Below are positions 9,006 through 31,094 of a stretch of DNA of 32,150 bases, in pieces; the stretch's first letter is position 1; every line of letters starts with the position of its first letter. The DNA comes from a virus. Below the pieces are notes generated by a model that searched no databases, was not told the DNA's origin, and saw nothing but the letters and a program-made list of their open reading frames with translations. The position numbers were made by a program, and so were the translations under genes. The stretch lies in UHGV virus genome UHGV-0070112. One strand, given 5' to 3'.

Positions 9006-9043
9006 TTACAAGGCAGGCGCTCTACCAGCTGAGCTAAACCAGC
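9006..9043 (-). tRNA. tRNA-Thr(UGU)-like 5' half (acceptor, D-arm, anticodon stem 5' strand and loop)
   Basis: Minus strand GCTGGTT-TA-GCTC-AGCTGGTA-GAGC-G-CCTGC-CTTGTAA with U33 and anticodon UGU. The expected 3' anticodon-stem strand GCAGG is absent; the sequence runs into the HNH RBS. Overlaps the last codons of the N6 methyltransferase. Confidence 0.45.
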
Positions 9044-10083
9044 AAATTGCGCATTTCACTGACCGTCTGTTCAAATCTCTCGGTTTCCAGTTCGACACCT
9101 AGTCCCCTTCGCCCGAGAAGAGCAGCCTGCTTGAGCGTTGAGCCTGATCCAAAAAAGAAATCAGCTACAACATCACCCGGGCGGCTACTCGCTGTGATTA
9201 TCTGCTCCAGCATATCCGCAGGCTTTTCACATGGGTGTTTACCTGGATAAAACTGAACAGGCTTATGAGTCCAGACGTCGGTATATGGCACCGTGACCGA
9301 TACGCTGAATGGTCGCCGTAAACGGTAATATTCCTGCTGGAGTTCAGAATATTTTCGGCTTAACGATTGCCAGGTAGCGACAAGCTGGTGGTGAGGTTTT
9401 CCCAGTTCGTTGCGTGAGTGCTTATCCATGGCGATTTTTTGAAACAAAGCCTGCAACTTTAAATAATCGGCTTCGTTCGGTAGCTGCCACTGACTAAGGC
9501 CAAACCAGTGGGAAACCATATTTTTCTTACCTGTGGCTTCTGCAATCTGAGCGGACGTCACGCCAAGAGATTCCCGTGCATCACGGAAGTAAGAAATTAA
9601 AGGCGTCATGACGTGTTGCTTTAACTCATTACACTTTGCGGCATATCCATCGTCTTTGGGCCTGTATGGCCCCTGATAATGGTCGGCAAAAATGATACGT
9701 TCCGTCGCCGGGAAATATGACCGGAGGCTTTCTTTATTGCATCCGTTCCAGCGTCCCGAAGGTTTAGCCCAGATGATATGGTTGAGCAGGTTAAACCGCT
9801 CTCTCACCAACAGCTCAATATCCGCTGCCAGGCGGTGCCCACAGAACAGATACATGCTGCCGGCAGGTTTTAACACTCGCCAGAACTGTGCCAGACAGCT
9901 ATCCAGCCAACGTAAATAGTCCTCGTCCCCCTTCCATTGGTTATCCCAGCCGTTTGGCTTCACCTTAAAGTAAGGCGGATCGGTAACAATAAGATCAATG
10001 GAGTTATCGGGTAGCGATGGGAGGTATTGCAGGCAATCAGCATTGATTAATTCAATACTGGATGTTTTTACAGTATTTTTCAT
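9034..10083 (-). CDS. DNA N6-adenine methyltransferase, beta class
   Basis: 349 aa; motif IV IVTDPPYF near the N-terminus and motif I FFFGSGSTL near the C-terminus, the beta-class order. No adjacent restriction endonuclease other than the small HNH ORF downstream. Confidence 0.8.
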   Translation of the reverse strand: MKNTVKTSSIELINADCLQYLPSLPDNSIDLIVTDPPYFKVKPNGWDNQWKGDEDYLRWLDSCLAQFWRVLKPAGSMYLFCGHRLAADIELLVRERFNLLNHIIWAKPSGRWNGCNKESLRSYFPATERIIFADHYQGPYRPKDDGYAAKCNELKQHVMTPLISYFRDARESLGVTSAQIAEATGKKNMVSHWFGLSQWQLPNEADYLKLQALFQKIAMDKHSRNELGKPHHQLVATWQSLSRKYSELQQEYYRLRRPFSVSVTVPYTDVWTHKPVQFYPGKHPCEKPADMLEQIITASSRPGDVVADFFFGSGSTLKQAALLGRRGLGVELETERFEQTVSEMRNLLV

Positions 10084-15520: not shown

Positions 15521-15993
15521 TCTGCCTCCAGCACTATTTTCAACTCAAACGGAACATCTCCTCCGCAATAGCAGAGCGGGCCAAGGTCAGACATGAGGCT
15601 CCACAGGGTCATTGACGTATAGCCATTTTCGTCTGTTATCGGGGGCGAAAAGTCCCCGAAGATCCTCGGGTGCTGGATTCGATTCTGCTCGTGTTGTTTT
15701 TCCAAATGTCTGAGGGAAACTTCATTAAGTTTCACTTTTACGATGCTGTTGAGATTGACCGATATTTCTCTGGCCAACAGCGAAGGGGTGATACTGATAC
15801 CGCGAGAAACCCCGCGGGTGATTGTGATAACACCCTTTTTCTCCAACGCCTTGAGGTGTGTTGCTGCTGCATTGGGGGACCGGCACCCCAGCATGCCGGT
15901 CAGTTCGTAAGTTGTAGGCGGAAAACCATGTTTACGCTGATATTCGATCAGGAGGTCCAGGACCTCCTGCTGCCTTAAGGTCAAGGAAGTCAT
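15517..15993 (-). CDS. LexA-like N-terminal DNA-binding domain protein without S24 peptidase domain
   Basis: Start revised to ATG 15993 (MTSLTLRQQEVLDLLIEYQRKHGFPPTTYELTGMLGCRSPNAAATHLKALEKKGVI...), closely resembling the LexA winged-helix domain. C-terminal ~80 aa unrecognised. ATG overlaps the C5-MTase stop (ATGA); its own stop overlaps the rusA start. Confidence 0.6.
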   Translation of the reverse strand: MTSLTLRQQEVLDLLIEYQRKHGFPPTTYELTGMLGCRSPNAAATHLKALEKKGVITITRGVSRGISITPSLLAREISVNLNSIVKVKLNEVSLRHLEKQHEQNRIQHPRIFGDFSPPITDENGYTSMTLWSLMSDLGPLCYCGGDVPFELKIVLEAE

Positions 15994-17960
15994 GCTGCCT
16001 GCTCCTCTCTGTTCACGCACATTTCGGGTAAATTGGCGCGAACCAGCGCTTCGGCGAACGGCGGCGGGACGGCATTTCCACAGCGCGCAACCTGCTTATC
16101 TTTCGCGTATTTCACGCCGCGGTAATCCTGGTCAATGATGTACCACTCGGGGAAGCCCTGCGCCCGGTAAAGTTCGTGTGGCTGCAGCATGCGCATGCCG
16201 ATATCAACGATGCGGTAAGTCACTCCGCCGATTTCCACCAGACCGGTGCATTCCTCTCCGCAGTATTCCTGCAGGAACGACAGCACCTGCTGCGCTCGCT
16301 CTTCGTCATAGTCCTCGACTGCCAGAGTCGTTTTAACCTCGCCTACGTGCTGGCCACCAGCAGTGATAGTCGGCATCGGCTCGTCAGTGCGCTGGCCATC
16401 GCGGCATGTACCACGGAGCTTGATCAGATGAGACGTAACCATTGCGGCATCAGCCTTTGTCGTCATGGTTTGCAATGGCTCGCTAACGTCACGTGGCCTG
16501 CTCTGCCCAGCGCGACCGCCAACACCAACAATCTGAGCAGTAACCAGCGCATGATGATCGACGGTAGTAACTGAATGAGCTGGTTCATCCAAGTCAATAC
16601 CGGCGCCCTGATAATTCCCGCCATAGTGTTTCGCCAGGAATGCGGATACCAGTTGCGATTTACCGCCGCCGCCCGCGGTGATTGTTGCGCTAGGTTCGTC
16701 GGCACGGTGTCCGATGCTGGCGCCGAACTGCCGGGCGATAACCGGAGCGACGACACAGGCGCGCGATTCTTTCATGATGGTGTGAGCGGGTTTATCGAGC
16801 GGGCGTGGTTTAGCCTGGTACTCGCTGCCGCCATTGCCAGCCAGGAACGGCGCCAGCTCTGCTTCAACAATACCCAGAGCGTGACCATTCCCGCCCGGGC
16901 GTTTTGCGGTACCGGCCGTCACCGTCGGCAACGGATCGGTGACTTCCTGCCCGGTAGCTCCGGTTCGGAATTTTGTCAGATGAGGTACCGCAATTGCGTA
17001 GCCGTGGGTTTTCGTAATCGTCTGTAGCGGATCGTCCAGCGCCTGTCCCCGGAAACAGTCGTATTTGCCGCGTGTCGTTGTGTGATTGCACTTCACGATG
17101 AATGGCGAAGCGCTTTCGATAACAAAGCGCTGAATGCCGCGGGCAATCCGTTTTAGCGTATTCTCTGCCAGTGACTTTTTGCGACCGAAGATGCTCGGCG
17201 CGGGGATTGACCAGTCTATGCATTCCGCAGCTGTACGCCACGGCTCCAGCTGGCCCGCCAGCACGGCGGCAGACTTCGGATCCCCGTGCGTGGCTTCCGG
17301 CCAGACTATCGGTTTCCCGTCCCGGCGCATCACCATGAAGAACCGCTTACGGATGGTCGGCGCGCCATAATCGCAGGCGCGCAGCTCGCGAAAATCGACG
17401 ACATAACCAAGCCCGGCAATTAAGCGCTTGGCCTGCTCGCTATCCGGTGAAAACTCCAGAAACTCGCAACACTCCACCAGTGCAGGATGATCTGCTGGAA
17501 TACCGGTGGTAAGCATCCCGACAAATGCATTGAAAGTTTCACCGATGCGTGCCGGATCCGGTCGCATTTCTGCCGCGAGTAACGGACCCCACGTCTTAAA
17601 CTCTTCGACGTTTTCCAGCATCATGACTCGCGGGCCAACATCCAGCGCCCAACGAATGACGATCCATGCCAGCCCTCGAATAGCTTTCTCTACTGGTTTA
17701 GCACCTTTCGCTTTAGAAAAGTGACGACAGTCAGGCGAGAACCATGCCAGGCCGACAGGCTTGCCACTGGTAGCGGCTAATGGGGATACATCAAACACAC
17801 TTTCGCAATAGTGAAGCGTGTCGGGATGGTTAGTGCGGTGCATAGCAACGGCGTTAACATCGTGGTTAATCGCGATATCAACGCTACGCCCTATCGCCAG
17901 CTCAATACCTGTACTGGCGCCACCGCCACCAGCAAAATTATCGACAATAATCTCACGCAT
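15990..17960 (-). CDS. DNA cytosine-5 methyltransferase with a long, repeat-containing variable region
   Basis: 656 aa; motif I FAGGGGAS, catalytic-Cys region FSPDCRHFS, ENV motif MLENVEEF, C-terminal motif-X-like CGNAVPPPFAEAL. About 450 aa between ENV and motif X carry reiterated segments (LPTVTAG, SATITAGGGG, MPTITAGG, LQTMTT, LQTITKT). Confidence 0.85.
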   Translation of the reverse strand: MREIIVDNFAGGGGASTGIELAIGRSVDIAINHDVNAVAMHRTNHPDTLHYCESVFDVSPLAATSGKPVGLAWFSPDCRHFSKAKGAKPVEKAIRGLAWIVIRWALDVGPRVMMLENVEEFKTWGPLLAAEMRPDPARIGETFNAFVGMLTTGIPADHPALVECCEFLEFSPDSEQAKRLIAGLGYVVDFRELRACDYGAPTIRKRFFMVMRRDGKPIVWPEATHGDPKSAAVLAGQLEPWRTAAECIDWSIPAPSIFGRKKSLAENTLKRIARGIQRFVIESASPFIVKCNHTTTRGKYDCFRGQALDDPLQTITKTHGYAIAVPHLTKFRTGATGQEVTDPLPTVTAGTAKRPGGNGHALGIVEAELAPFLAGNGGSEYQAKPRPLDKPAHTIMKESRACVVAPVIARQFGASIGHRADEPSATITAGGGGKSQLVSAFLAKHYGGNYQGAGIDLDEPAHSVTTVDHHALVTAQIVGVGGRAGQSRPRDVSEPLQTMTTKADAAMVTSHLIKLRGTCRDGQRTDEPMPTITAGGQHVGEVKTTLAVEDYDEERAQQVLSFLQEYCGEECTGLVEIGGVTYRIVDIGMRMLQPHELYRAQGFPEWYIIDQDYRGVKYAKDKQVARCGNAVPPPFAEALVRANLPEMCVNREEQAA

Positions 17961-18906
17961 GAGCGGTCCCCCTCATGCTGCCGACCAGCCCACCAGCAAG
18001 GGTGATGATTTCGCTGGTGGGCACGCGCTCCAGCCACAACTGGTTAATATGGGCCTTCAGCTTGTTCTGCTGGGAGAACTCCAGATCCTCTGCGCCTTGT
18101 ACCTGTCCAAAGACGAGTCCAACTTCCAGTGGCCAGATCCGGGATTCAGGCTCAGCCAATGATGCAACAGCATCGGGGATGATCACTTCAGGAGACTGAA
18201 CTGGCGAAACTGGTGACAGGAATTTTCCTGCAGCAAACTCAGCCAGCGCCATACTTGCGCGCCCTTTTGCTTCCAGCTCAACGCGATCGATATAGCTAAA
18301 ATGTTCACCGCGCCAGGTCTTATCAAATACCGCAATGGCCCCGGCAAAGAATGCGCTGGTGGGCTTCTGCTTTTCGTCGGCCGGCACAAACCACGTTGGG
18401 AGATCGAATCCAATACGACCACGAATAAACATGATGTGATCGGCATATTCCGGCCACCATGTTTCACTTGTTGCTGACTTCACGAGGTAAATGTAACGAC
18501 CACCCTTTTCACGCTGCTCGGCGGTATAGTTCATAATATGAGTCATGCCAGTGATGGCTTGTTTTTCATGGTACTGCGAGCGGCTGTACGGCGGATTAGC
18601 AAAGGCCGCTCCTCCGAGTTCTACCAGACGACCAGACCAGTCCTGCGTCAGCGCATTATCTTCAGCGGTATACCATGCCGGGCATTTTGTATTGCTGTCG
18701 TCTGCAAACAGGTCCAGCACCAGCGGGCCAAACAAAGCGTTAACGCCCCAGAACAGCAGATCAGGGGTACGCCATTGATCCCCGACTTCTTTCAAATAAT
18801 GCGAACTTCGCTGGCGCTGTTCCTCAAGTGCCAGGCAATAAGGGCTGACGCTTTTTGTTAAATTTTGCTCTTCTGCGGTCATAGCTTCTTGTACTTCCTG
18901 ACTCAT
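17953..18906 (-). CDS. Phage Dam-type DNA N6-adenine methyltransferase
   Basis: 317 aa; DLFADDSNTKCPAWYTAED and AFANPPYS motifs of the phage Dam family. GGGGA RBS. Has an extra ~100-aa C-terminal region. Confidence 0.8.
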   Translation of the reverse strand: MSQEVQEAMTAEEQNLTKSVSPYCLALEEQRQRSSHYLKEVGDQWRTPDLLFWGVNALFGPLVLDLFADDSNTKCPAWYTAEDNALTQDWSGRLVELGGAAFANPPYSRSQYHEKQAITGMTHIMNYTAEQREKGGRYIYLVKSATSETWWPEYADHIMFIRGRIGFDLPTWFVPADEKQKPTSAFFAGAIAVFDKTWRGEHFSYIDRVELEAKGRASMALAEFAAGKFLSPVSPVQSPEVIIPDAVASLAEPESRIWPLEVGLVFGQVQGAEDLEFSQQNKLKAHINQLWLERVPTSEIITLAGGLVGSMRGTAHA

Positions 18907-19543: not shown

Positions 19544-20451
19544 CCCCGGAACCCCCGTGGAATCGTGGTTTGTACTGGACTAATTGAATTAACATCCCGC
19601 GGTCTGGTTTTGTCCCACGACTCCCTTGGCGGGCGGCCTTTAGCATCCCAACGGATAGCGCTTTGCAGATATCCCTCGAATTTTTTAGGGCCGAAAAGTG
19701 TCTCGGGTCGCATGTACTGGTATTGCTCGTCGTTGCCATGCCAGTGCTCATGCTTGATGTCAATTACCAGTTTCAAGTCGCTAACGGTATGACCTTCGCG
19801 GAGGCGGGCGCGAATGTTCTCCAGCGAGGTCTTAGATTTCTGGTAACGGGAACCGCTGACCAGATTCAGGTGTGCCAGAACTTCGATCGCGTTATCGGTA
19901 ATAACAACTTCAGGATCCGGCTTATCGTCGGGTTCCGCAGGAGCCCGACAAGAAGGTTTTTTAGATGACGGATCTAATGACGGATCTAATGACGGATCGC
20001 CTTCAACCATTGAGGGGTCCTCCCGCAATATTTGAGGGGGTACAGACCCATTATTTGAGGCATCAGAATTTGACCCCTCAAATTTTGAACCCTCAAATTC
20101 TGAGGCATCAAATTTTGATTGTTCACGTGGCGTTGCGTAGAAAATTTTTGCTTCAGCTGCTGCACGTTCCAGCATGTCAACATTGAGTTTATAAACGTTC
20201 GAATTATTCTTTCCGCCCACGCGCCGTTCCTGCTTCTTCAGCCAGCCTTTAGCCTGAAGCTTTTTGATAGCGCTGCGGACAGTATTCTCGCTCTTGGCGC
20301 CGATCTGTCGCTGAATAGTGGTTACCGCTGGCCATGACACACCTTCGTCATTACTGAAATCTGCCAGGCGAGCCATGACCGCTATTTCTGAGATTATCAG
20401 CCCTTTGAAAGCGCATGCTTCCCATACGAGGCCGTGTAATTTACTGCTCAT
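19540..20451 (-). CDS. Replication initiation protein (O-like) with conserved phage C-terminal domain
   Basis: 303 aa; N-terminal HTH-like region, central low-complexity linker encoded by the iteron repeats, C-terminal VLAHLNLVSGSRYQ...LKLVIDIKHEHWHG typical of phage replication proteins. Confidence 0.7.
   Translation of the reverse strand: MSSKLHGLVWEACAFKGLIISEIAVMARLADFSNDEGVSWPAVTTIQRQIGAKSENTVRSAIKKLQAKGWLKKQERRVGGKNNSNVYKLNVDMLERAAAEAKIFYATPREQSKFDASEFEGSKFEGSNSDASNNGSVPPQILREDPSMVEGDPSLDPSLDPSSKKPSCRAPAEPDDKPDPEVVITDNAIEVLAHLNLVSGSRYQKSKTSLENIRARLREGHTVSDLKLVIDIKHEHWHGNDEQYQYMRPETLFGPKKFEGYLQSAIRWDAKGRPPRESWDKTRPRDVNSISPVQTTIPRGFRG
19965..20115. repeat. Iteron-like repeats (candidate origin) inside the replication gene
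   Basis: Direct repeats gacggatctaat x3 (19965-20000) followed by at least six copies of TTTGAGGG / CCCTCAAA-type units in both orientations (20008-20115). Confidence 0.5.
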
Positions 20452-21682: not shown

Positions 21683-22309
21683 ATGGAAACTGTCGGACAA
21701 CGAATAAAATCGCTTAGGCGAATCACCAGAACCTCACAAAAAGAGCTTGGGAAGTTTTGTGGGGTCAGTGATGTCGCAGTTGGGTATTGGGAAAAGGACG
21801 TAAACGTCCCAGGAGGGGAATCTCTTTCCAAACTAGCAAAATTCTTCAATACATCAATTGATTACATACTTTTTGGCACTGAGTTTGAGGGAAACTTAAT
21901 AACTAAGATGCGAAAAGTTCCCGTGATATCGTGGGTGCAAGCAGGATTATTCACTGAATCAAAGCCTGAAGATGTCTTGCATGATGCCGAAAAATGGGTG
22001 GAAACGTCTCTCCGCATCAGCGATAACTCGTTTGCCCTTGAAGTAAAGGGAGACTCAATGACAAATCCTAATGGACTGCCCACGATTCCTGAAGGCGCAA
22101 CGGTCATCGTTGATCCAGACATTGAGCCAATTCATGGAAAGATTGTAGTTGCACGAATAGATGGGACCAACGAGGCCACGGTCAAAAAACTGGTTGTAGA
22201 CGGTCCGCAAAAATTTCTTGTCCCGCTAAATCCCCGTTATCCTAACATCGCCATCAATGGTAACTGCGTCATTATTGGTGTGGTTAAAGGCGTTCAATAC
22301 GAGCTCTGA
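21683..22309 (+). CDS. cI: CI-type repressor (HTH plus S24 LexA-like peptidase domain)
   Basis: 208 aa; N-terminal HTH (TSQKELGKFCGVSDVAVGYWEK), C-terminal S24 domain with catalytic-serine motif KGDSM and downstream Lys. Confidence 0.85.
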   Translation: METVGQRIKSLRRITRTSQKELGKFCGVSDVAVGYWEKDVNVPGGESLSKLAKFFNTSIDYILFGTEFEGNLITKMRKVPVISWVQAGLFTESKPEDVLHDAEKWVETSLRISDNSFALEVKGDSMTNPNGLPTIPEGATVIVDPDIEPIHGKIVVARIDGTNEATVKKLVVDGPQKFLVPLNPRYPNIAINGNCVIIGVVKGVQYEL

Positions 22310-22327
22310 TCTAAGCTAATCTCCCTT

Positions 22328-22358
22328 CGACACCAAGCTAAGAAAAGTTTGGTGTTTT
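22328..22358 (+). terminator. Intrinsic terminator after cI
   Basis: Stem ACACCAA / TTGGTGT with 12-nt loop, followed by TTTTT. Confidence 0.5.
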
Positions 22359-22369
22359 TTCTTGACGAC

Positions 22370-22398
22370 AAAACTAAGTTAAGTTAGATTTTCATCTA
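22370..22398 (+). promoter_or_regulatory. Candidate PL promoter with embedded left operator
   Basis: TTGACG, 17-bp spacer, TAGATT. The spacer holds CTAAGttaaGTTAG, the same half-site family as the cro-cI operators. Confidence 0.4.
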
Positions 22399-22494
22399 TC
22401 AACAGCGAAGAGGCAGGACGCCCACGAAGTAGCCGCCCGGGGCATATGAAGTCCGGGATGATTCGCTGACAGATAAACCAAATAGGAACAGATC

Positions 22495-22728
22495 ATGGCA
22501 AGCAAAGGCATTGAAAACCTTATCAAGGACGCATTAGCAAACGGCTGTCATGTAGTCCGTAAAGCGCATCGCTTCGAGGTAAGCAAGAAAGGCCAAAAAT
22601 CAATCACTCTTATTATTTGTGAAGATGGCACAGCTTACCGGGGAGATATTGACCTAACGATCGCCATAGCCATTCGCACTCAAAAAGAAATGCGCAGCAT
22701 CCTCGGCCTGCCGGCCAAGGCAAGTTAA
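22495..22728 (+). CDS. Hypothetical 77-aa protein, first ORF after candidate PL
   Basis: AGGA RBS 8 nt upstream; no recognisable motif; not Arg-rich. Sits in the slot lambda uses for rexAB. Confidence 0.4.
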   Translation: MASKGIENLIKDALANGCHVVRKAHRFEVSKKGQKSITLIICEDGTAYRGDIDLTIAIAIRTQKEMRSILGLPAKAS

Positions 22729-23360
22729 TTACCACAGGTATCTTCGGGAGGGGTTGCGAAGCTGGATTGACCACCAGCAACAGAAACTCACCCGACATAC
22801 AGCAGCCGTTTAACCCACGGCGTCGGGGGTCCAGTAGACCTGGATTAATACTGTAGGGGTTGTGCCGGTTGGTCGCCGGCGCCCCGCCCGAAGATACCTG
22901 AACGAACATGGCGAAGCCGACAGCGTTGAAGGCGATTTTCTCGGTTTGCGCGCTAAACAATAGCGGGGGTGAAATCGGGGCGGAGAAGCAGAATCCGCGA
23001 TGTCGGGACTTGATACTTCCGGCCATACCAACAAGCCGAATGATCGCGTAACGATCCTTTGCATCTGCCCCGGCGAGGTGGCGCCGCCGGACCGGGGTAG
23101 ATGAATCGTACACAACATGAAAGCGCATTCCATCTTCATCCGTCGTGGGGACTGGTTTGTAACTGAAGGAGTGCGCTTCCAGTTGTGAACGGCAATATTC
23201 ACGACCGTTGTATGGCACATGCAGCGTTAGCAGCCCGGATGGTTCCCTTGAAGTTCCATGCGCTATCCGGACAACTGGAATGTGCAAGCCAAGTGTTTCA
23301 GGCACGACGTGCGCCCCACCAGCGCGGCGAAAAGGTGTGACGCCCGGGAAGAGTCCGGGA

Positions 23361-23475
23361 CACAACAGGTAAGAGCATTCCCGCCACACGAGGCTGAAAC
23401 CCAATCGCCATGTGGATGCGCCGAAAAGCTACGACGGGGCGTTGGTAGAAGATCGGAGTGCTCTCTCCGTTGTGG
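23361..23475 (+). other. Paired-motif element, early-left copy
   Basis: CACAACAGGTAAGAGCATT ... ~77 nt ... GGAGTGCTCTCTCCGTTGTGG on the plus strand; same arm sequences as 8374-8476. Inside a GC-rich ORF-poor stretch. Confidence 0.3.
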
Positions 23476-23616
23476 TAATTGCGGCTATGCGCACGTGGCG
23501 AGCCAACCCGTTCATGGAATGCGTTTCCGGGCAGTGTACGTCGCCGGTTATGGCTTAACCCGGCAGGTGGAGGCACCACCGCCACAACCTAGTTAACTGT
23601 GCTGTGTGTAGTCTTG

Positions 23617-23687
23617 GCGGTTATCCAGTTTTCCACTATCCAAAGGAGGAAGAGGATAACGTTCTGATGGATAACCGCCCTTTTTAC
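23617..23687 (+). promoter_or_regulatory. 11-bp perfect inverted repeat enclosing the RBS and start of a small ORF
   Basis: GGCGGTTATCC (23617-23627) and GGATAACCGCC (23669-23679) bracket AAGGAGGAAGAGGA and the ATG at 23667; followed by CTTTTTAC. Confidence 0.4.
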
Positions 23688-23828
23688 ACAATACACAAGA
23701 GCATCACCGGGCGACGGGCTCATTACCCAATCCACCCGGGCGGATTTGCAGCCGCAGGTGCTCTTCTGTGTTGTGTACGGAGAAATTCCCGGCGGTGGCA
23801 GCCGCCTTTCGAGAGGGTAAAACCATGA
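23667..23828 (+). CDS. Hypothetical 53-aa Arg-rich protein
   Basis: MDNRPFYTIHKSITGRRAHYPIHPGGFAAAGALLCCVRRNSRRWQPPFERVKP. GAGGA RBS 10 nt upstream; stop overlaps the next gene's ATG (ATGA). Could be spurious in GC-rich DNA. Confidence 0.3.
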   Translation: MDNRPFYTIHKSITGRRAHYPIHPGGFAAAGALLCCVRRNSRRWQPPFERVKP

Positions 23829-24196
23829 GTAATGATCGCATGACAGTCGTGCCCGATTTCCTGGGCGAACTGGACGCCGGCGTATTCATGAACAAGATTG
23901 CGGCGGCTCTGAATACCACCGCGCTCGGCGTTCTGAACAACGGCAACAAAGGCAAAGTAGTCCTGACCTTTGATTTTGAGCGTATGGGCAACTCTGTTGA
24001 AGAGAAGCGCGTCAAGATTAAGCACAAGCTGAACTACAGCACCCCAACTCCCCGCGGAAAAGCGTCGGAAGAGGACACCACCGAAACACCAATGTGGGTC
24101 AATAAAGGCGGCAAGCTCACCATCCTGCAGGAGGATCAAGGGCAACTCTTCGGTATCACCGGCACGGTGGACGGAAAGCTTAAAGCGGCTCAGTGA
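23825..24196 (+). CDS. Hypothetical early-left protein
   Basis: Start revised to ATG 23825 (MSNDRMTVVPDFLGE...) with GAGGG RBS; 123 aa. Confidence 0.5.
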   Translation: MSNDRMTVVPDFLGELDAGVFMNKIAAALNTTALGVLNNGNKGKVVLTFDFERMGNSVEEKRVKIKHKLNYSTPTPRGKASEEDTTETPMWVNKGGKLTILQEDQGQLFGITGTVDGKLKAAQ

Positions 24197-24252
24197 TCCG
24201 CACGCACAAATTCACTGATACCACTTCGCTAATCAGTTAATAAGGAATTTTT

Positions 24253-25080
24253 ATGTCTCAGTTAGACAGCGGTACTTTTCAGCAGGTTAAAGACCTGGTG
24301 CTTTCCGGTTATCACCTGAACGATATCCACGGCCTGGCCTGCCCGACCGCCCTGTTACCTCAAAATACAAGCGTTGAAAGCCTGGAGCGTTTTTCTTATG
24401 AGCGCTTCCGTTTCCGTGGCGCCATGGACACAACCAGTATTGATGATTTCGTTCGCTATTCTGTTGGTTATGCCCAGGAAGAAGAAAAAGCACGTTGCTT
24501 TATTGATGCCGATAACATGCTTGCTCGCTCTATCTTCAACATCGGTACGCTGGATAACCCAGGCCACGCTGATAACGTCGCCTCGATCAAGCTTAAGAAG
24601 ACAGCACCCTTCCGCGCGTTACTGGCGATCAACGGCGATCACCTTAATCAGAAGCAAATCGCCGAATGGCTCGAAGACTGGAGCGACTATCTCACTGCGT
24701 TCGATGCTGACGGACAGACAATGAAAATGGCACAGGCGGCGCAGGCGGTTCGCCGTGTCACTATCCAGCAAACTAATGCCGCCGATCATGAAGACGGTGA
24801 TTTCAGCGGCAAAAAATCGCTGATGCAAAGTATCGAAGCCAGCAGTAAAGATGTTATGCCGGTCGCTTTTGAATTTATGTGTGTACCGTATGAGGGCTTG
24901 GGCGAGCGTCGTTTCAGTCTGCGCAACAGCCTGCTGAAAAGTAGCGACCCGGTGTTTGTTCTGCGCATTGTCCAGTTGGAGGCGCAGGAAGAAGCGATCG
25001 CCAATGAGTTCCGTGACCTGTTGGTTGGCAAGTTCGACGGCAAGCCGGTAGAAACCTTCATCGGTAACTTCAAAGCCTAA
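24253..25080 (+). CDS. DUF2303-like prophage protein (from recollection)
   Basis: 275 aa; size and position match DUF2303/YfdQ-type proteins of lambdoid prophage early-left operons as I recall them. Confidence 0.5.
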   Translation: MSQLDSGTFQQVKDLVLSGYHLNDIHGLACPTALLPQNTSVESLERFSYERFRFRGAMDTTSIDDFVRYSVGYAQEEEKARCFIDADNMLARSIFNIGTLDNPGHADNVASIKLKKTAPFRALLAINGDHLNQKQIAEWLEDWSDYLTAFDADGQTMKMAQAAQAVRRVTIQQTNAADHEDGDFSGKKSLMQSIEASSKDVMPVAFEFMCVPYEGLGERRFSLRNSLLKSSDPVFVLRIVQLEAQEEAIANEFRDLLVGKFDGKPVETFIGNFKA

Positions 25081-25209
25081 TTCAAAGCCTGATTGCTCAG
25101 CCTTAAATCCCCGCAGCTGCGGGGATTTATTGAAGCGTAATCCTGTAATTAATCGCCACCTGGCGAGGGATTCCTACACCCAAAAAACAGCGCTGTGCAG
25201 GCGTAAAGT

Positions 25210-25749
25210 ATGGAGAAAAAAATGAGCTTTATTCAAACCTTTTCAGGCAAACATTTTAACTATCTCGACATCCAGCAAGACGCCATCGAGATCGAAGATA
25301 TTGCTAATGCACTCTCGAACATCTGCCGCTTTGCCGGTCACCTGCCTGAGTTCTACAGCGTCGGCCAGCACAGCGTTTTAACAAGCCAACTGGTACCTCA
25401 AGAATTTGCGCTTGAAGCGCTGCTGCATGACGCCGCCGAGGCATATTTGCAGGATATCCCTGCCCCATTGAAACGCCTTCTTCCTGACTACCGCGCCATT
25501 GAAGATCAGGTTGATGCAGCTATTCGCCAAAAATTCGGCCTGCCGGCTGAGCAGCACCCAACCGTTAAATATGCCGACCTGGTGATGCTGGCCAGCGAAC
25601 GTCGCGACTTTGAGATCGACTACGGCACCCACTGGCCGATGCTCGACGGCGTCATTCCTACTGACCAGTTTGTGATTAATCCCGTCCGCCCGGGCCAGTC
25701 TTACGGCATGTTCATGAACCGCTTTAACCAACTGATGGAGCGGCGCTAA
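25210..25749 (+). CDS. HD-domain phosphohydrolase
   Basis: 179 aa; His at ICRFAGH and HD dyad at ALLHDAAEAYLQD, consistent with the HD metal-dependent phosphohydrolase fold. Confidence 0.6.
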   Translation: MEKKMSFIQTFSGKHFNYLDIQQDAIEIEDIANALSNICRFAGHLPEFYSVGQHSVLTSQLVPQEFALEALLHDAAEAYLQDIPAPLKRLLPDYRAIEDQVDAAIRQKFGLPAEQHPTVKYADLVMLASERRDFEIDYGTHWPMLDGVIPTDQFVINPVRPGQSYGMFMNRFNQLMERR

Positions 25750-25949
25750 TGGCACATGTGAAAGTGAAAGAATTGGTTGCTGCAGCATACGCTGCAGCAC
25801 CTGACCTACCACCAGCAGCAGCACAATTAATGCAAGACATAGCGTCAAGGCTGGATGTCACCTTTGTCGCCCTTACAGAGGCAATGGACCAGAACACCGC
25901 TATGGCCGCGATGATAGCGAACCTGAGCGAGGAAAACAGAAATGGCTAA
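25749..25949 (+). CDS. Hypothetical small protein
   Basis: 66 aa, Ala-rich; ATG overlaps the upstream stop and its 3' end overlaps the ParB-like start. Confidence 0.4.
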   Translation: MAHVKVKELVAAAYAAAPDLPPAAAQLMQDIASRLDVTFVALTEAMDQNTAMAAMIANLSEENRNG

Positions 25950-26727
25950 AAACTCGATCGATGCTTATGGCGCCAGCGGCAAGACAAACGTTCTGATGTT
26001 CGAGCCGGAAAATCTGCATATTGTCACTGACAAGGCCCACCCGCTTTACGATGAGCGAGTCAGTCTGCCGATCGATGAAGGGATGGTGCTGAATATCAAG
26101 GAGCTGGGTGTTCTTGAGCCGATTATTGTCTGGAAAGACCCTGAAAAGGGGCTCACCTGTGTGGTTGTCGGTCGTCAGCGCGTTAAACATACGCTGGAAG
26201 CCAATAAGCTCCTGCTGAAAGAAGGCAAAACACCGCTGCTTGTTCCTGGAGTCGTTAAGCGTGGGTCGGCATACCAAATGGCCAAATACATGGTTAGCGA
26301 AAACGAAATACGCCGACCTGATACGCCGTTAGGTCGCGCTAAGAAAATGTCCGACGCGCTGGACCGTGGTCATGACGAGGACGACCTTGCGGTGTTGTTT
26401 GGCTGTAGCGTTCAGACCGTACGAGCAACGCTGTCACTACTCGATGCTACCCAGGCTGTTCGGGAAGCGGTGGAGTCCGGCACAGTCACCGTTACCCAGG
26501 CGCGTCAGCTTGGCGCGCTCCCACCTGAAGAGCAGCGGGCAAAAGTGGCAGAAATCGAGCTGGCGACAGCTGGTACCAAAGGCCATGAAAAATCCCGTCG
26601 GCAGCGTCAGGTTCTCGGTGAGGCAAAGCGGCGCATCAAATCACGTAAGGAAATCACAAAAGCCCTCGAAGATGCCAGCGGCGAATATGCCGAGGCTCTG
26701 CTCTGGGTACTTGGGGAGGCGAAATGA
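25942..26727 (+). CDS. ParB-like nuclease-domain protein
   Basis: 261 aa; N-terminal ParB/Srx-like region (LEPIIVWKDPEKGLTCVVVGRQRVKH), central HTH-like segment, basic C-terminus. RBS GAGGAAAACAGAA. Confidence 0.65.
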   Translation: MAKNSIDAYGASGKTNVLMFEPENLHIVTDKAHPLYDERVSLPIDEGMVLNIKELGVLEPIIVWKDPEKGLTCVVVGRQRVKHTLEANKLLLKEGKTPLLVPGVVKRGSAYQMAKYMVSENEIRRPDTPLGRAKKMSDALDRGHDEDDLAVLFGCSVQTVRATLSLLDATQAVREAVESGTVTVTQARQLGALPPEEQRAKVAEIELATAGTKGHEKSRRQRQVLGEAKRRIKSRKEITKALEDASGEYAEALLWVLGEAK

Positions 26728-26858
26728 ACTTTGAACCTGAAAATTACAGCCGGCGCGCCCTTCTCTGGTTTGCGGCACTGGTTAGTGTTGCCGGGTGGGT
26801 TGCAGTAGTCGCTGTGACCTGGGGCGTATGCATGATGATCGAATGGGTGACGGCATGA
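26724..26858 (+). CDS. Hypothetical 44-aa membrane peptide
   Basis: Manual translation MNFEPENYSRRALLWFAALVSVAGWVAVVAVTWGVCMMIEWVTA. ATG overlaps the ParB-like stop and its stop overlaps the next ATG. Confidence 0.4.
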   Translation: MNFEPENYSRRALLWFAALVSVAGWVAVVAVTWGVCMMIEWVTA

Positions 26859-27079
26859 AAGTGAAATGCATCAAAGATACCGAGGGTTGGTGGACTGAGG
26901 GTGAAATGTATCCTGCCCGTGTAGTTGCTGGCGGGTTTGTCCAAGTCGGCGACGATGACGATCCCAATGGCGAAGGCTGGAGCGCTGCACCAATGGAATA
27001 TCGGGAAGATGGCTCGATAGTTTATCAGGTCGGCGGTATTGAGGGTGATGCGTTATTCGAGGAGGCCAGCCATGACTGA
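26855..27079 (+). CDS. Hypothetical small acidic protein
   Basis: Start revised to ATG 26855 (MKVKCIKDTEGWW...), 74 aa; the longer track ORF starts upstream without a convincing RBS. Confidence 0.4.
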   Translation: MKVKCIKDTEGWWTEGEMYPARVVAGGFVQVGDDDDPNGEGWSAAPMEYREDGSIVYQVGGIEGDALFEEASHD

Positions 27080-28106
27080 TATCACCGAACTGGCGCAGGG
27101 TGACATCGACCGGCGTTGTCTGGCAGAAAACACCTTTAATTTGATTTCCATGTCCGGCGGGAAAGACTCGTTAGCCCAATGCCTGTATGCCGTAGAGAAC
27201 GGCGTGAAGCACGATCGGGTGTTTGCTGATACGGGCCATGAACACCCTCAGACGATGGAATATCTGGATTATCTTGAACAAAAGCTGGGTCCGATTCGCC
27301 GGGTAAAAGCTGATTTCACTCGCCAGATTGAGGGTAAACGTAAATTCATTGCAGAAAAATGGCCGGTTTCCCTCGTTGAAGAATGCGGGATGTCTCACGA
27401 TGAAGCGGAGGAGCGTATCGCCCGTGCACTGGAAATCCTCCACCCAACCGGTAATCCATTTCTGGACCTGTGCATGTGGAAAGGTCGATTCCCGAGCACA
27501 AAAGCGCGGTTCTGCACGTTCGACCTTAAACATGAGCCTGTACGCACTCAGGTGGTGCTACCGGCGCTTGATGAATATGACGAGGTTATTAGTTGGCAGG
27601 GCGTACGCGCCCAAGAATCGCCAGCGCGGGCTGGCCTGCCGATGTGGGAAGAGGATGCAGATAATACTCCTGGTCTGCACGTCTATCGCCCAATTCTCAA
27701 TTGGCTGCATGAAGATGTGTTTGCTATTGCAAAACGCCATGGAATTAAGCCAAACCCACTATATCTGCAAGGCTGTAGTCGCGTTGGGTGTATGCCATGC
27801 ATTCACGCTCGAAAATCTGAATTAGCGGAGATTTTCCAGCGTTGGCCGGAGGAAATAGCCAGGGTAGCAAAGTGGGAGCGCTTCGTTGCAGCTTGCTCTC
27901 GCCGCGGCAACTCTACATTTTTCCCATCAACCCATGATCCGCGCCGGGCAGAACGTCGTATAGACGTTATCACGGTGGACGGTTACGGGATTGAAACCTA
28001 TCGCGACTGGGCGATGACAACCCGAGGCGGAGCCCAGTTCGATTTACTGGCTGAAGCTAACGACAAATCCGTGTGTAGCAGCGTTTATGCAGGGGTGTGT
28101 GAGTGA
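27072..28106 (+). CDS. PAPS-reductase-like (phosphoadenosine phosphosulfate reductase family) protein
   Basis: Start revised to ATG 27072 with strong GAGGAGG RBS. P-loop-like SMSGGKDS near the N-terminus and Cys-rich C-terminal region (CSRVGCMPC). Confidence 0.7.
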   Translation: MTDITELAQGDIDRRCLAENTFNLISMSGGKDSLAQCLYAVENGVKHDRVFADTGHEHPQTMEYLDYLEQKLGPIRRVKADFTRQIEGKRKFIAEKWPVSLVEECGMSHDEAEERIARALEILHPTGNPFLDLCMWKGRFPSTKARFCTFDLKHEPVRTQVVLPALDEYDEVISWQGVRAQESPARAGLPMWEEDADNTPGLHVYRPILNWLHEDVFAIAKRHGIKPNPLYLQGCSRVGCMPCIHARKSELAEIFQRWPEEIARVAKWERFVAACSRRGNSTFFPSTHDPRRAERRIDVITVDGYGIETYRDWAMTTRGGAQFDLLAEANDKSVCSSVYAGVCE

Positions 28107-28279
28107 TTGATCTTGCTGAGTGCGAAGCACGTGCACTCATTAAAAACCTGCAGCAGCGGATAAAGTGGAAAGAGGAATTAGCTCCTCTCAATCATCTTGA
28201 AGCGCAAGACCTGATTATTTATCGGATAGCACTTGAGGCGCTCGAAGAGGCATTGAATGAACGAAAAATTATTGAATGA
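28103..28279 (+). CDS. Hypothetical 58-aa protein
   Basis: Manual translation (M)IDLAECEARALIKNLQQRIKWKEELAPLNHLEAQDLIIYRIALEALEEALNERKIIE. GTG start overlaps the PAPS-reductase-like stop. Confidence 0.35.
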   Translation: MIDLAECEARALIKNLQQRIKWKEELAPLNHLEAQDLIIYRIALEALEEALNERKIIE

Positions 28280-28416
28280 CGACGTGAAAATTCTCCTTCG
28301 TCAGATAGAAGACGGCAAGCCATATGTCGAACTTATTAACTTCATGGTTAATCAGTTCGGATTGACGTACCGAGAGGCGCAGGAAGTCCATGAGAAGTTG
28401 AGTCGGGAGAGTGATT
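28255..28416 (+). CDS. Hypothetical 53-aa protein
   Basis: Manual translation MNEKLLNDDVKILLRQIEDGKPYVELINFMVNQFGLTYREAQEVHEKLSRESD. GAGG RBS; the next gene starts 2 nt after its stop. Confidence 0.35.
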
Positions 28417-28418
28417 AA

Positions 28419-29297
28419 ATGACCAATAACCAGTTAAACAGAGAACGTCTGGAAAAAATTAAATCATGGCGTGAAACCTATGGATCTGAAAGCAACGTAA
28501 TGCTGCCAGCAGAAGAAGCGGAAGAGCTGGCCCGCATGGCGCTGGACGCAATGGACGGTGAGCCGGTTGTGTTCACAGATGAACGAAACCTTCATCATAT
28601 TGCTATGGGCCGAGAAACATCTCTGATTTGGGGTAAACAAAACCAGCTGGCGGGGGATATCCCGCTCTATCGCCACGCGCAGCCAGCGCCGGACCGCGAG
28701 CAGGTACGCCGTGAGCACGCCGAGTGGTCACAGGCTACGTTCGGTAATGTCGGCCCGGTTGGCCCACTGAAGCACCTGGCAAAAGAGGCTATGGAGGCCG
28801 CAGCGGAACCAGATGACCTGTCGGAGTGGGCTGATATGCAATTCCTGCTGTGGGATGCCCAGCGCCGGGCTGGTATTACAGACGAGCAGATTACCCAGGC
28901 GATGATCGAAAAACTGGCGGTGAACAAACAGCGCGAATGGCCTGAGCCGAAAGACGGTGAGCCGCGGTTGCACATTAAAGATCAACCATCGGCGGTAGGG
29001 CCAGTAACAGATGCTATGGCTTACGCATTCCATCATGCGCTAACCGATGGTCCCCTGGGTGATGACGATGTGGAGGATATTAAGATCGGATTGAGAGCAG
29101 CTTTCGCTAATGTAACCACCTATCAGCCATTACCAGTAGTGCTGAAAGAGCATCAAATCCGTGAACTAATCAATAAACTGCGTGATATAGCTATTGAATA
29201 TCACAGTACACAACAATTGCGTGAGCATATTGCTTGTGTTGTCCACGCCGCTATGAGCGCGATCGCACCACCAGCGCCAAAAAGCGCAGTTAATTAA
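28419..29297 (+). CDS. DUF550-like (dATP/dGTP pyrophosphohydrolase-type) domain protein
   Basis: 292 aa; central REHAEWSQATFGNVGPVGPLKHLAKEAMEAAAEPDDLSEWADMQFLLWD resembles the DUF550/MazG-like domain of lambdoid early-left proteins as I recall it. Confidence 0.55.
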   Translation: MTNNQLNRERLEKIKSWRETYGSESNVMLPAEEAEELARMALDAMDGEPVVFTDERNLHHIAMGRETSLIWGKQNQLAGDIPLYRHAQPAPDREQVRREHAEWSQATFGNVGPVGPLKHLAKEAMEAAAEPDDLSEWADMQFLLWDAQRRAGITDEQITQAMIEKLAVNKQREWPEPKDGEPRLHIKDQPSAVGPVTDAMAYAFHHALTDGPLGDDDVEDIKIGLRAAFANVTTYQPLPVVLKEHQIRELINKLRDIAIEYHSTQQLREHIACVVHAAMSAIAPPAPKSAVN

Positions 29298-29324
29298 TAA
29301 TTTTCCCCGGGTGCAGCCGGGGTA

Positions 29325-29543
29325 ATGGAGAAATCTATGCTGAGCCTCGATTGTGTTCCCATCTCAACTTATTGCAAAGAGACAGGCGAAACCCCTGATG
29401 CCATAAATAAGCGCATCCAGCGTGGCGTATGGCGTGAAGGAGTACAGGTGCTAAAGGTCGAAGGCGTTAAGGAAAGATGGATAGATCTTAGTGAGGTTGC
29501 AAAATGGGCTCGACAAAATCGCCTAAACTCCCGCGCGGCGTAA
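29325..29543 (+). CDS. xis: Excisionase-like protein
   Basis: 72 aa, immediately upstream of and overlapping the integrase gene; small basic HTH-like protein. True start may be the ATG at 29337. Confidence 0.5.
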   Translation: MEKSMLSLDCVPISTYCKETGETPDAINKRIQRGVWREGVQVLKVEGVKERWIDLSEVAKWARQNRLNSRAA

Positions 29544-30694
29544 CGATCAGGAAACATAGTACTGGGGAAACTATCAATATTACCTTTACCTATAAGGGGG
29601 TGAAATGCCGGGAACCTTTATCAAACCTTGAAGTTAATAGCAAAAACATAAAATACGCCGAGCGAACACTCGGCGAAATACACAATAAAATTGAGCGGGG
29701 TACATTCAATTATGGTGAACACTTTCCCCGTTCGGCACGACTTAAAATATTTGGTAATGCTTCAACAGGAAAAACGGTAAAAAATTATCTCGATGAATAT
29801 CTTGTAATTTGTGAAACGAGAAAATTATCTCCTTCAACAATCGGCGGATATAAGAAATGTTTAAATGCTTTGGCATCACTTCACGTTTTTCCTGCCAGTG
29901 AATTAACACCTGCTGCTTTAAAAACATGGATCCAGAGTCAGAAAACGACATTAAAAACGATTAGGAACCAACTTTCATTCCTACGCTCAGCACTGGATGA
30001 AGCTGTGACTGATGGTGTATTACAGATTAACCCAGTTTCACTGGTGACAGCCTCGCGCTACCAGAGCAGTAAAACCGAGGATGAAAGTGATTATATTGTT
30101 GATCCGCTTTCACCGGCCGAGGTTGAAGCGCTTTTGCATGCCGCAGGTAACAAGCAGTGGGAAAACATATTCCGCTTTGCAATTGAAACCGGGCTACGTA
30201 GTTCTGAACTCTGCGCCCTCCGTTGGCGCGATATCGACTTTATCGGCAAAACAGCGCATGTGCAAAATGCCAGCGTAGTGGGGGTAATTAAGGGCACGAA
30301 AACTAAAGCTGGAACACGTAAAGTTGAGTTAACCGAAGAAGCCTTGTATGCCCTGATTTCTCAGAAGCCTTTCACCTTTATTAAAGATGCAACGATCTTT
30401 GAGGATCCCAAGACAGAAAAACCATGGGCGGGTGCCGATGCGATAAGAAAGAAAGCTTGGGTGCCAACTTTACGCAAAGCCGGGATCAGGTACCGCAATC
30501 CATACCAGACCAGGCATACGTTCGCGACCAGGCATATTAGTCGAGGCGCTAACCTGTTCTGGCTCGCATCGCAGATGGGACACAAAGGGCCTGAAATGTT
30601 GTTCAGGCATTATGGACGCTATCTGAAGGAGTATGACGGCAACACTGAAAAACGACCCAAGCTGGTCAGCGGTGGAACCTCAAAGGAGCCGTAA
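29504..30694 (+). CDS. int: Tyrosine integrase (lambda-Int family)
   Basis: 396 aa; C-terminal catalytic region with RHTFATRHISRGANLFWLASQMGHKGPEMLFRHYGRY (R, H-x-x-R, Y). Last phage gene before the attachment core. Confidence 0.85.
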   Translation: MGSTKSPKLPRGVTIRKHSTGETINITFTYKGVKCREPLSNLEVNSKNIKYAERTLGEIHNKIERGTFNYGEHFPRSARLKIFGNASTGKTVKNYLDEYLVICETRKLSPSTIGGYKKCLNALASLHVFPASELTPAALKTWIQSQKTTLKTIRNQLSFLRSALDEAVTDGVLQINPVSLVTASRYQSSKTEDESDYIVDPLSPAEVEALLHAAGNKQWENIFRFAIETGLRSSELCALRWRDIDFIGKTAHVQNASVVGVIKGTKTKAGTRKVELTEEALYALISQKPFTFIKDATIFEDPKTEKPWAGADAIRKKAWVPTLRKAGIRYRNPYQTRHTFATRHISRGANLFWLASQMGHKGPEMLFRHYGRYLKEYDGNTEKRPKLVSGGTSKEP

Positions 30695-30751
30695 AGGATC
30701 CGCAGCAAAACGCTACATTTTTTTATCACTGTTTATCATGAGGTTATAAAG

Positions 30752-30787
30752 TTTCGGGCGCGGGTTCAACTCCCGCCAGCTCCACCA
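30752..30787 (+). other. ssrA: Attachment core: 3'-terminal segment of the tmRNA gene ssrA
   Basis: TTTCGGGCGCGGGTTCAACTCCCGCCAGCTCCACCA matches my recollection of the E. coli tmRNA 3' end (T-arm-like stem, acceptor end, CCA). Only ~36 nt; upstream is integrase coding sequence. Confidence 0.6.
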
Positions 30788-30845
30788 AAATTCTCCATCG
30801 GTGATTACCAGAGTCATCCGATGAAGTCCTGAGAGCCCGCATGGC

Positions 30846-30868
30846 GCAAGCCCTGCGGGCTTTTTTGT
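30846..30868 (+). terminator. Intrinsic terminator in flanking DNA
   Basis: Stem AAGCCC / GGGCTT with loop TGC, followed by TTTTTTG. Confidence 0.4.
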
Positions 30869-31094
30869 GTCTGTATCGGTCTGGCGGGAATGACTGAGAA
30901 CCGCAGCCTTGTGGTACCTTTTTGGGCTCCAGGAGAAAAGAGCCAAAAAACGCGGGTCCTAAAATGGCAAAACTCATTAAGAAGCTCATTGCGGCTAAAA
31001 GCACAAGCATGAAGCCTTCAGAGCAGACAGCCTGAATATCTGTAATGGGTCAGGCAACGGTTGCCTGCACAATATGAGAAACCGCTGCGACTAT

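Follow-up and report, generated by a model that had tools for sequence, protein, structure and literature searches.

A candidate modification or counter-defence enzyme in the mosaic early operon of a lambdoid prophage

UHGV virus genome UHGV-0070112, a stretch of 32,150 nucleotides (nt) referred to here as the window, is a lambdoid prophage, and the segment at positions 25942-28106 is the middle of its PL-like early accessory operon. The segment carries a ParB-like gene, two small genes (p44 and p74) and a gene of the 3'-phosphoadenosine 5'-phosphosulfate (PAPS) reductase superfamily, hereafter the PAPS-like gene, which are joined by overlapping start and stop codons. The explanation that we favour, with a probability of roughly 55%, is that this is a mosaic early operon in which a DndC/SspD-like PP-loop enzyme occupies a modification or counter-defence cargo slot beside an orphan ParB.

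According to this explanation the cassettes would have been inherited independently, ParB with p44, p74 as the head of a p74-Ead/Ea22 pair, and the PAPS-like gene with the small genes p58 and p53. The start/stop overlaps would reflect a compact, translationally coupled operon and not a dedicated complex. The PAPS-like gene would fill an optional slot, in which sister phages put orphan DNA methyltransferases or a DndB-like gene. Its product would act independently of ParB, most likely in early-expressed nucleic-acid modification or counter-defence, and may help incoming or induced phage DNA to escape host restriction, plausibly of the phosphorothioate (PT)-based Dnd/Ssp type.

Overlapping genes and mosaic breakpoints

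The segment, its nearest neighbours and the recombination joint within it are as follows.

25749-25949, + strand: p66, 66 amino acids; phrog_12248, E 7.7e-32; ratio of nonsynonymous to synonymous substitution rates (dN/dS) 0.17 over 7 pairs
25942-26727, + strand: ParB-like gene, 261 amino acids; ATG start with GAGGAA upstream
26724-26858, + strand: p44, a 44-residue single-pass membrane peptide; ATGA overlap with the ParB stop
26855-27079, + strand: p74, a 74-residue acidic all-beta protein; ATGA overlap with the p44 stop
27060-27098, + strand: recombination joint; ribosome-binding site and nine opening codons from an Ead/Ea22-like gene (MTDITELAQ), joined to the PAPS body
27072-28106, + strand: PAPS-like gene, 344 amino acids; PP-loop protein of the PAPS reductase superfamily
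28103-28279, + strand: p58, 58 amino acids, GTG start
28257-28418, + strand: p53, 53 amino acids

A first-pass annotation of this DNA had described ATGA-type overlaps throughout the four-gene chain. This holds for ParB/p44 and p44/p74, whereas the p74/PAPS junction is an 8-nt overlap (ATGACTGA). The PAPS-like gene starts at ATG 27072, with a GAGGAGG Shine-Dalgarno sequence 7 nt upstream; the mechanically called open reading frame (ORF) start, TTG 27039, was rejected, as homologues align only from about residue 2-12. Upstream, p66 has 1 nt in common with the stop codon of an HD-domain gene, and its own stop lies within an 8-nt overlap with the ParB start. The eight consecutive junctions from the HD gene to a MazG-like gene have gaps of -1, -8, -4, -4, -8, -4, -23 and 0 nt. 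The chain spans 25749-28419, beyond the four-gene segment on both sides, and also ties together neighbours that are plainly unrelated to one another. The overlaps are real and conserved, yet they are the norm in phage polycistronic operons and not unusual by themselves. Since they are real, translational coupling, which the first-pass annotation had drawn from them, is plausible. The co-function that it had also drawn does not follow, because each protein has its own distribution and recombination history, and co-function of the four proteins is weakly supported.

Phage 186 provides a direct example of coupling without co-function. On sequence comparison the PAPS-like gene is orthologous to 186 orf84 (phrog_424 group): the proteins share 83.2% amino acid identity over residues 12-344 (83-86% for the gene of 186/P2-like Peduoviridae as a group), belong to the same length class and have the same conserved motifs, and identity to genes of 186/P2-like prophages is 83-90%. 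In phage 186, one of the 186/P2-like Peduoviridae, orf84 likewise belongs to an early operon and is translationally coupled to the next gene, and the RefSeq record states that translation to the end of orf84 is needed for translation of A. There orf84 lies immediately 5' of replication gene A and no ParB is present, whereas the window gene belongs to a lambdoid PL-like operon.

The mosaicism was first revealed by a megablast of the whole 2.2-kb segment against E. coli genomes and phages, in which no record covered at least 80% of it. Window positions 22301-26867, including p66, ParB and p44, are 97.6% identical at the nt level to an IMG/VR prophage (L016; L-numbers denote related loci), and the homology stops at 26867. 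This prophage is without 26868-28417 and has no PAPS gene; homology returns at the MazG-like gene and xis-int. Positions 27075-28567 (PAPS, p58, p53) are instead 99.3% identical to locus L096, in which ParB, only 80% identical, abuts PAPS directly, without p44 or p74.

The 39 nt of the joint are 100% identical in Klebsiella phages and one E. coli prophage, all of them without a PAPS gene, and 28 nt of it (27071-27098) are 100% identical by blastn to locus L054 (7234-7261). The N-termini place the switch directly after the ninth codon: in the window MTDITELAQ is followed by GDIDRRC and in the L054 Ead protein by SLKAA, while 186 orf84, which lacks an Ead/Ea22 head, begins M-IDSRC. The first nine codons of the window gene are thus Ead/Ea22-derived. 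Ead/Ea22-like genes come after ParB/p44 in 40/80 sister loci. As the PAPS head is an Ead/Ea22 head, and as p74 normally precedes Ead/Ea22, the PAPS body replaced an Ead/Ea22 body through recombination within the Ead/Ea22 5' end. The same 39-nt stretch heads unrelated cargo in many Klebsiella and E. coli prophages, among it Ead/Ea22-like genes, the PAPS gene and others (also L004, 6001-6039), and appears to be a conserved linker through which cassettes recombine.

p44 and p74 are true genes. For p44 the PHROG match is phrog_2936 (E 1.6e-27), and it has 54 full-length, gap-free homologues in the fetched loci, with the ATGA overlap on the ParB stop in 52 of the 54 and a dN/dS of ~0.17. Its Kyte-Doolittle hydropathy of 2.39 over residues 13-31 indicates a transmembrane helix, and it is a conserved membrane-peptide companion that travels with ParB. 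p74 (phrog_11067, E 1.9e-44; dN/dS ~0.13; isoelectric point 4.07) has 167 homologue clusters, confined to Enterobacteriaceae. In Salmonella P2-like prophages a p74 homologue stands immediately 5' of an Ead/Ea22-like gene, with a 4-nt overlap between the two gene calls; p74 is an independent cassette whose usual partner was an Ead/Ea22-like gene. p58 and p53, which gave no Pfam, PHROG or NCBIfam match, accompany this copy of the PAPS gene and are missing from almost all other PAPS loci sampled. Four evolutionary units are juxtaposed in the window: ParB with p44, p74, the Ead/Ea22 head, and PAPS with p58 and p53.

The ParB-like protein and its association with PAPS genes

The names given to the two larger proteins by the first-pass annotation are confirmed by Pfam and PHROG profiles. 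The ParB-like protein matches Pfam HTH_ParB (E 3e-10; 40.6 bits against a cut-off of 22.6) and phrog_1033 (E 1.1e-76). Its N-terminal domain is of the ParB/Srx type and contains GxxR and ENxxR boxes, behind which lies a ParB helix-turn-helix domain; the protein aligns with Noc/Spo0J as VVVGRQRVKH with IIAGERRWRA and as SENEIRRPDTP with IENLQREELTP. With HTH_ParB and an N-terminal ParB/Srx domain bearing a GxxRxxA-like box, the protein belongs to the ParB/Spo0J/Noc family. Its GxxR and ENxxR boxes are those of cytidine triphosphate (CTP)-binding ParB/Noc proteins, and its domain layout is that of the chromosomal and plasmid ParB/Noc/KorB CTPase clamps, although its NCBIfam scores lie far under the equivalog cut-offs of these.

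Pfam and PHROG scans of the operon proteins gave no ParA-like partner and hence no ParABS system, and a shallow search (short inverted repeats over 22300-30900, direct repeats over the whole window) gave no repeated palindrome of the parS kind. Since the prophage integrates, a partition function is unneeded. The default reading is that the protein is an orphan DNA-bound regulator or clamp, and ParB belongs to the backbone in this family of prophages. One perfect palindrome, AAATCCCCGCAGCTGCGGGGATTT at 25105-25128, lies between the DUF2303 and HD genes and is followed by a T-rich stretch. It was considered as a ParB-linked site and rejected, being present in 1/175 related loci, namely L016, and probably forms a hairpin that acts as internal terminator or attenuator.

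ParB-like and PAPS-like genes do recur together, as the first-pass annotation had stated. The ParB-like protein and gp58 of Burkholderia phage phiE125 are 49% identical along the full length of the former (E 5e-84), and gp57, immediately before gp58, is an orthologue of the PAPS-like protein (45% amino acid identity). In three further enterobacterial prophage lineages (L096, L099 and L106) ParB is followed directly by PAPS; in L099 and L106 the nt identity to the window is 77% and 71% for ParB and 87.5% and 76.6% for PAPS. DndB-DndC and YbdM-YbdN are remote analogues of the pairing. The frequency of the association argues for independence of the two genes. We collected 240 ParB loci, 80 each around the window ParB, the L106 ParB and Burkholderia gp58. 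A PAPS-like gene of any kind is present in 33 of these and absent from 207. The 80 loci nearest to the window ParB include none with a 186-type PAPS gene and five with a different PAPS-like gene, and a PAPS gene is found near the L106 ParB in 4/80 loci and near gp58 in 24/80. Conversely, 3 of the 80 nearest PAPS loci have a ParB and 77 have none. In INPHARED the two families coincide only in Burkholderia phages. Prophages of the P2-like kind and of Cupriavidus, Variovorax and Janthinobacterium, like phage 186, carry a solitary PAPS gene, and replication or integration genes often follow close behind it.

The Burkholderia phages are also informative as to the slot itself. In phiE125 the order gp56-gp57-gp58 corresponds to an N4/N6 methylase, a PAPS reductase and the ParB-like protein. 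As in the window, both orthologues lie in an early operon and PAPS is optional beside a backbone ParB; unlike in the window, PAPS comes first and directly adjoins ParB, beside replication genes and without p44 or p74, and the host is a Betaproteobacterium. Within the constant backbone (gp55...gp58-gp59-gp60), the slot between gp55 and gp58 holds methylase and PAPS in 15 loci, PAPS only in 9, methylase only in 9 and neither in 7. From these combinations and from the locus counts we conclude that the ParB-PAPS association is facultative, and that PAPS is optional cargo beside a backbone ParB, like orphan methylases.

Downstream of enterobacterial ParB genes there are more than 40 gene arrangements, rich in Dam, MT-A70 and C5 methylases, and in distant phages (phiE125, Rivra, SFCi1, Parlo and locus L008) PAPS adjoins a DNA methylase gene or is no more than two genes away from one. 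Pfam revealed no hidden ParB domains in the methylases beside the PAPS genes of other phages. A DndB-family gene is found in 17/80 loci (L176-L254) of one ParB clade. In a prophage of E. coli strain 219 (L004, 4159-6020) a DndB-family (DGQHR) gene stands right after ParB and overlaps its stop (Pfam DndB, 1.3e-42), so that in sister prophages an orphan Dnd component, DndB, fills the slot that holds the DndC-like gene in the window. In L070 (7679-8479) and four other ParB loci, a PAPS-like gene of a second, shorter subfamily is found downstream of this ParB subfamily; the L070 member has 266 amino acids, an NHSGGKDS PP-loop and an SCVFC motif (Pfam PAPS_reduct, 1e-9). A conserved 251-residue cargo protein (MIHYHGGPITPDTC...; L016 8189-8944; cluster 39), for which there was no Pfam match, lies downstream of ParB in 9/160 enterobacterial ParB loci.

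These distributions also bear on a different explanation, in which ParB and the PAPS-like protein would form a two-component DNA-modification module. ParB would then be a CTP- or nucleoside triphosphate (NTP)-dependent clamp that provides targeting or the NTPase, in the role of DndB/DndD, SspC or DpdB, for a sulfur-inserting or adenylating PP-loop enzyme. We regard such a module as possible, if rather doubtful. The 24/80 phiE125-type Burkholderia loci always have PAPS followed by ParB with a gap of <100 nt, and the adjacency in L096, L099 and L106 is accompanied, in the latter two, by roughly parallel divergence of both genes. The second PAPS-like subfamily is found near this ParB in 5/80 loci, and ParB retains its GxxR and ENxxR NTP-binding boxes. 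Known PT systems require an NTPase partner, and the two superfamilies are paired elsewhere: DndB (PMC10853773) and DpdB (PMC12839542) are ParB-superfamily partners of the modification enzymes DndC and DpdA, and YbdM is paired with YbdN. Such a module is nevertheless hard to reconcile with the 207/240 ParB loci that have no PAPS-like neighbour, the 77/80 PAPS loci that have no ParB and the solitary PAPS genes of 186, P2-like, Cupriavidus, Variovorax and Janthinobacterium prophages. In addition, a single Burkholderia backbone displays all four combinations of presence and absence, the gene order differs between the enterobacterial and Burkholderia groups, and in the window two unrelated cassettes lie between ParB and PAPS. 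It is unlikely that the pair constitutes a minimal phage-borne system for DNA sulfur (or other adenylation-dependent backbone or base) modification, with the ParB clamp replacing the DndD/SspC/BrxC NTPase and targeting, and the phage DNA being marked as 'self' to PT-sensing defences.

Motifs, fold and predicted function of the PAPS-like protein

Profile and structure searches uphold the family assignments. The PAPS-like protein belongs to the PAPS reductase superfamily (Pfam PAPS_reduct, PF01507, E 1.4e-35, 123 bits) and matches phrog_424 (E 6.5e-83). An AlphaFold2 model has a predicted local distance difference test score (pLDDT) of 85 and a predicted template modelling score (pTM) of 0.82, and its fold matches among solved structures are APS/PAPS reductase (APS, adenosine 5'-phosphosulfate), CysD and TtuA. 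The model contains a helical insertion of ~90 residues and a disordered C-terminal tail (residues 319-344) that bears C335 and C343; a disordered tail is also a trait of CysH-type enzymes. Solved DndC/SspD structures were considered as a closer fold; none came up, the top matches being generic APS/PAPS reductase, CysD and TtuA. A weak match to a Protein Data Bank chain named 'PptA' was followed into the literature, which gave no lead.

Among the homologues compared, 10 of them distant and 96 closer, the following elements are invariant or nearly so: the PP-loop S-x-S-G-G-K-D-S, a DTG motif, C134, C148, R-V-G-C240-x-x-C243, C335 and the terminal G-x-C343-E. The invariant residues that place the protein in the orf84 group are S28-S33, C148, C240, C243 and C343. 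The canonical PP-loop implies adenosine triphosphate (ATP) pyrophosphatase, that is adenylating, activity. Like DndC, SspD and BrxP, the protein combines a PP-loop with cysteines of the iron-sulfur (Fe-S) type and a cysteine pair resembling that of a sulfur carrier, and its neighbour, being of the ParB superfamily, is comparable to DndB. The SGGKDS loop, C134, C148 and GC240xxC243 are present, and the cysteines may serve a [4Fe-4S] cluster as in DndC/SspD; the PADLOC matches are partial: SspD 9.4e-25 (the best; residues 133-272), BrxP 2.3e-12 and DndC 1e-6. The window protein also differs from these enzymes in having no DUF4007 domain. Judging from these features, it is probably an ATP-pyrophosphatase-type, Fe-S-containing, sulfur-handling enzyme of the DndC/SspD/TtuA kind, with nucleic acid as the likely substrate. 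The scans gave no DndA/D/E, SspB/C or BrxC/Z/L partners, whereas published PT systems need an NTPase partner. DndD/E, SspB/C and BrxC were absent both among the ten operon proteins encoded at 24253-29297 (Pfam, PHROGs, NCBIfam, PADLOC) and, by PHROG scan, among the other large ORFs of the window.

The Pfam and PHROG names would suggest a true auxiliary metabolic gene, that is, a CysH-type APS/PAPS reductase that boosts sulfate assimilation by the host. Indeed, APS/PAPS reductases are the solved structures that match best in sequence and in fold, and the DTG and the SIGCxPCT-like motif (RVGCMPC) also occur in APS reductases. However, the scores with the NCBIfam CysH/APS-reductase models fall far under the cut-offs (NF002537, 61.9 bits against 154; TIGR00434, 37.2 against 165; TIGR02055, 46.6 against 235), which excludes the protein from the CysH-type equivalogs. 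Where E. coli CysH has the loop SSSFGIQ and lacks a CxxC motif, the phage protein has the canonical SGGKDS; where CysH has ECGLHEG at its C-terminus, the phage protein has CSSVYAGVCE. It thus has neither the ECGLH motif nor a degenerate P-loop, and it has the ~90-residue helical insertion and a C-terminal extension. The neighbouring genes belong to DNA metabolism and DNA modification, none to a sulfur pathway. The PAPS-like protein is not a CysH-type sulfate-assimilation reductase, and a role in host sulfate assimilation is highly improbable.

A pairing of the same two superfamilies within one operon is found in E. coli, where YbdN, an SGGKDS protein annotated with a PAPS reductase/DUF3440 region, lies beside a ParB-superfamily gene, YbdM, and overlaps it in strain K-12. 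We take YbdN and YbdM to be the K-12 counterparts of IbrA and IbrB, and IbrAB is reported to activate prophage eib genes. The window pair could on these grounds be an IbrA/IbrB-type co-activator of prophage or host gene expression, but we think this very unlikely. BLASTP of the window ParB against YbdM gives E 14, that is, nothing, and the similarity between the PAPS-like protein and YbdN is a marginal local match of 80 residues (E 0.002). The score with PRK06850, presumably the YbdN/IbrA-like model, is 21.7 bits against a cut-off of 536. Neither GCxxC nor a cysteine-bearing C-terminal tail is found in YbdN, and the window pair stands in the opposite order, with other genes in between. Membership of the IbrAB/YbdNM family is largely refuted by these comparisons.

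A nucleic-acid modification or counter-defence role for the PAPS-like protein, as we favour, is consistent with what has been found for other phages. A Vibrio crassostreae phage PAPS-Dam fusion gene, p0018, enabled escape from host Dnd when transferred together with one neighbouring gene (preprint 10.1101/2021.05.05.442762). No other phage PAPS-domain gene has a reported experimental function, and as in the window a phage PAPS reductase domain and a DNA methylase go together in a variable region. PAPS reductases also occur in Aca-regulated candidate anti-defence operons (PMC13551039); the P2 defence-hotspot paper (PMC9122126) makes no mention of PAPS reductase or ParB.

Several points weigh against the role that we propose. 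The predicted Fe-S cluster and ATP pyrophosphatase activity are read from motifs only. The tested anti-Dnd protein is a PAPS-methylase fusion that belongs to a different PHROG (preprint 10.1101/2021.05.05.442762), and the PHROG scan gave no match of the window protein to phrog_33262, a PAPS-reductase-methylase fusion family. Established PT systems require a PAPS-domain protein together with a dedicated NTPase, and gut isolates with a lone PAPS gene had no PT (PMC12914056). The first-pass annotation had held that the role of such genes in lambdoid phages is not established, and the record of phage 186 orf84 agrees with it, reading 'unknown function; not essential'. Finally, the co-occurrence counts cover the best 80 loci per query only, out of roughly 400 ParB and roughly 280 PAPS relatives, and a real functional link, underrated here, could underlie the repeated ParB-PAPS adjacency of four enterobacterial lineages and of the Burkholderia phages.

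Prophage context and implications

The remaining features of the prophage that bear on the operon are listed below.

9034-10083, - strand: DNA methyltransferase gene
15990-17960, - strand: DNA methyltransferase gene
17953-18906, - strand: DNA methyltransferase gene
21683-22309, + strand: cI-like repressor gene
22329-22356: terminator-like hairpin
22362-22390: promoter-like site
25210-25749, + strand: YfdR-like HD deoxynucleoside monophosphate phosphatase/deoxynucleotidase gene
28419-29297, + strand: MazG-like dATP/dGTP pyrophosphohydrolase gene (PF04447, E 2e-41)
29325-30694, + strand: xis-int

The operon extends over ~8 kb of the + strand, with no convincing + strand terminator before 30848, and contains DUF2303, HD, p66, ParB, p44, p74, PAPS, p58, p53, the MazG-like gene, a 72-amino-acid ORF and the integrase gene. 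The 72-amino-acid ORF, which is of excisionase size, had no family match in the scans. The HD and MazG-like genes, which flank the segment, are backbone genes that are present also where the PAPS gene is missing; one guess is that they manipulate the pool of deoxynucleoside triphosphates. CII-like and O-like replication genes are encoded on the opposite strand. Four iteron-like repeats with 15-nt spacing (TTTGA..CCCTCAAAT, 20054-20128) lie within the O-like gene and are the presumed origin of replication. The prophage has four modification-type genes in total, and the methyltransferase encoded at 17953-18906 also matches the C-terminal half of phrog_33262. The integrase gene is closely followed, at 30750-30795, by the 3' end of ssrA, the gene for transfer-messenger RNA (tmRNA) (GCGGGTTCAACTCCCGCCAGCTCCACCA). 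As ARAGORN detected no complete tmRNA, this end represents the attachment-site duplicate of a prophage integrated at ssrA. The host flank (to 32150) matches Klebsiella michiganensis DSM 25444, and the prophage thus sits in a Klebsiella chromosome.

This context allows a further alternative to be weighed, in which the PAPS-like gene, alone or with its neighbours, would be a prophage defence or superinfection exclusion function expressed in the lysogen. The operon is oriented as the cI-like gene, so that read-through in the lysogen is possible, the protein resembles the defence components SspD, BrxP and DndC in PADLOC, and the slot is hypervariable, like defence hotspots. On the other hand, the stretch from cI to the operon contains a terminator-like hairpin and, separately, a promoter-like site. 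The cassette is without a restriction or effector partner (DndFGH-, SspE- and PglZ-like genes are missing, and the neighbours have no PADLOC match), and the companions of the slot are orphan methylases, as is typical of self-protection. We therefore consider expression as a lysogen defence improbable.

Both families are already annotated and widely distributed, and the linkage through overlapping small genes is ordinary phage architecture. The significance of the locus lies in the reading of the PAPS-like gene as a DndC/SspD-like enzyme in a cargo slot. Virome studies routinely score phage 'PAPS reductases' as sulfur-metabolism auxiliary genes; for the widespread 186-orf84 family, the motifs and contexts argue for a DndC/SspD-like nucleic-acid-modifying or counter-defence enzyme instead. 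Were ParB and PAPS together to form a PT system, DNA phosphorothioation would have a fifth route, made up of two genes and for the first time encoded by phages. If the favoured reading is true, a common annotation would be corrected, and the 186-orf84 family would add a class of phage counter-measures against phosphorothioate-based immunity.

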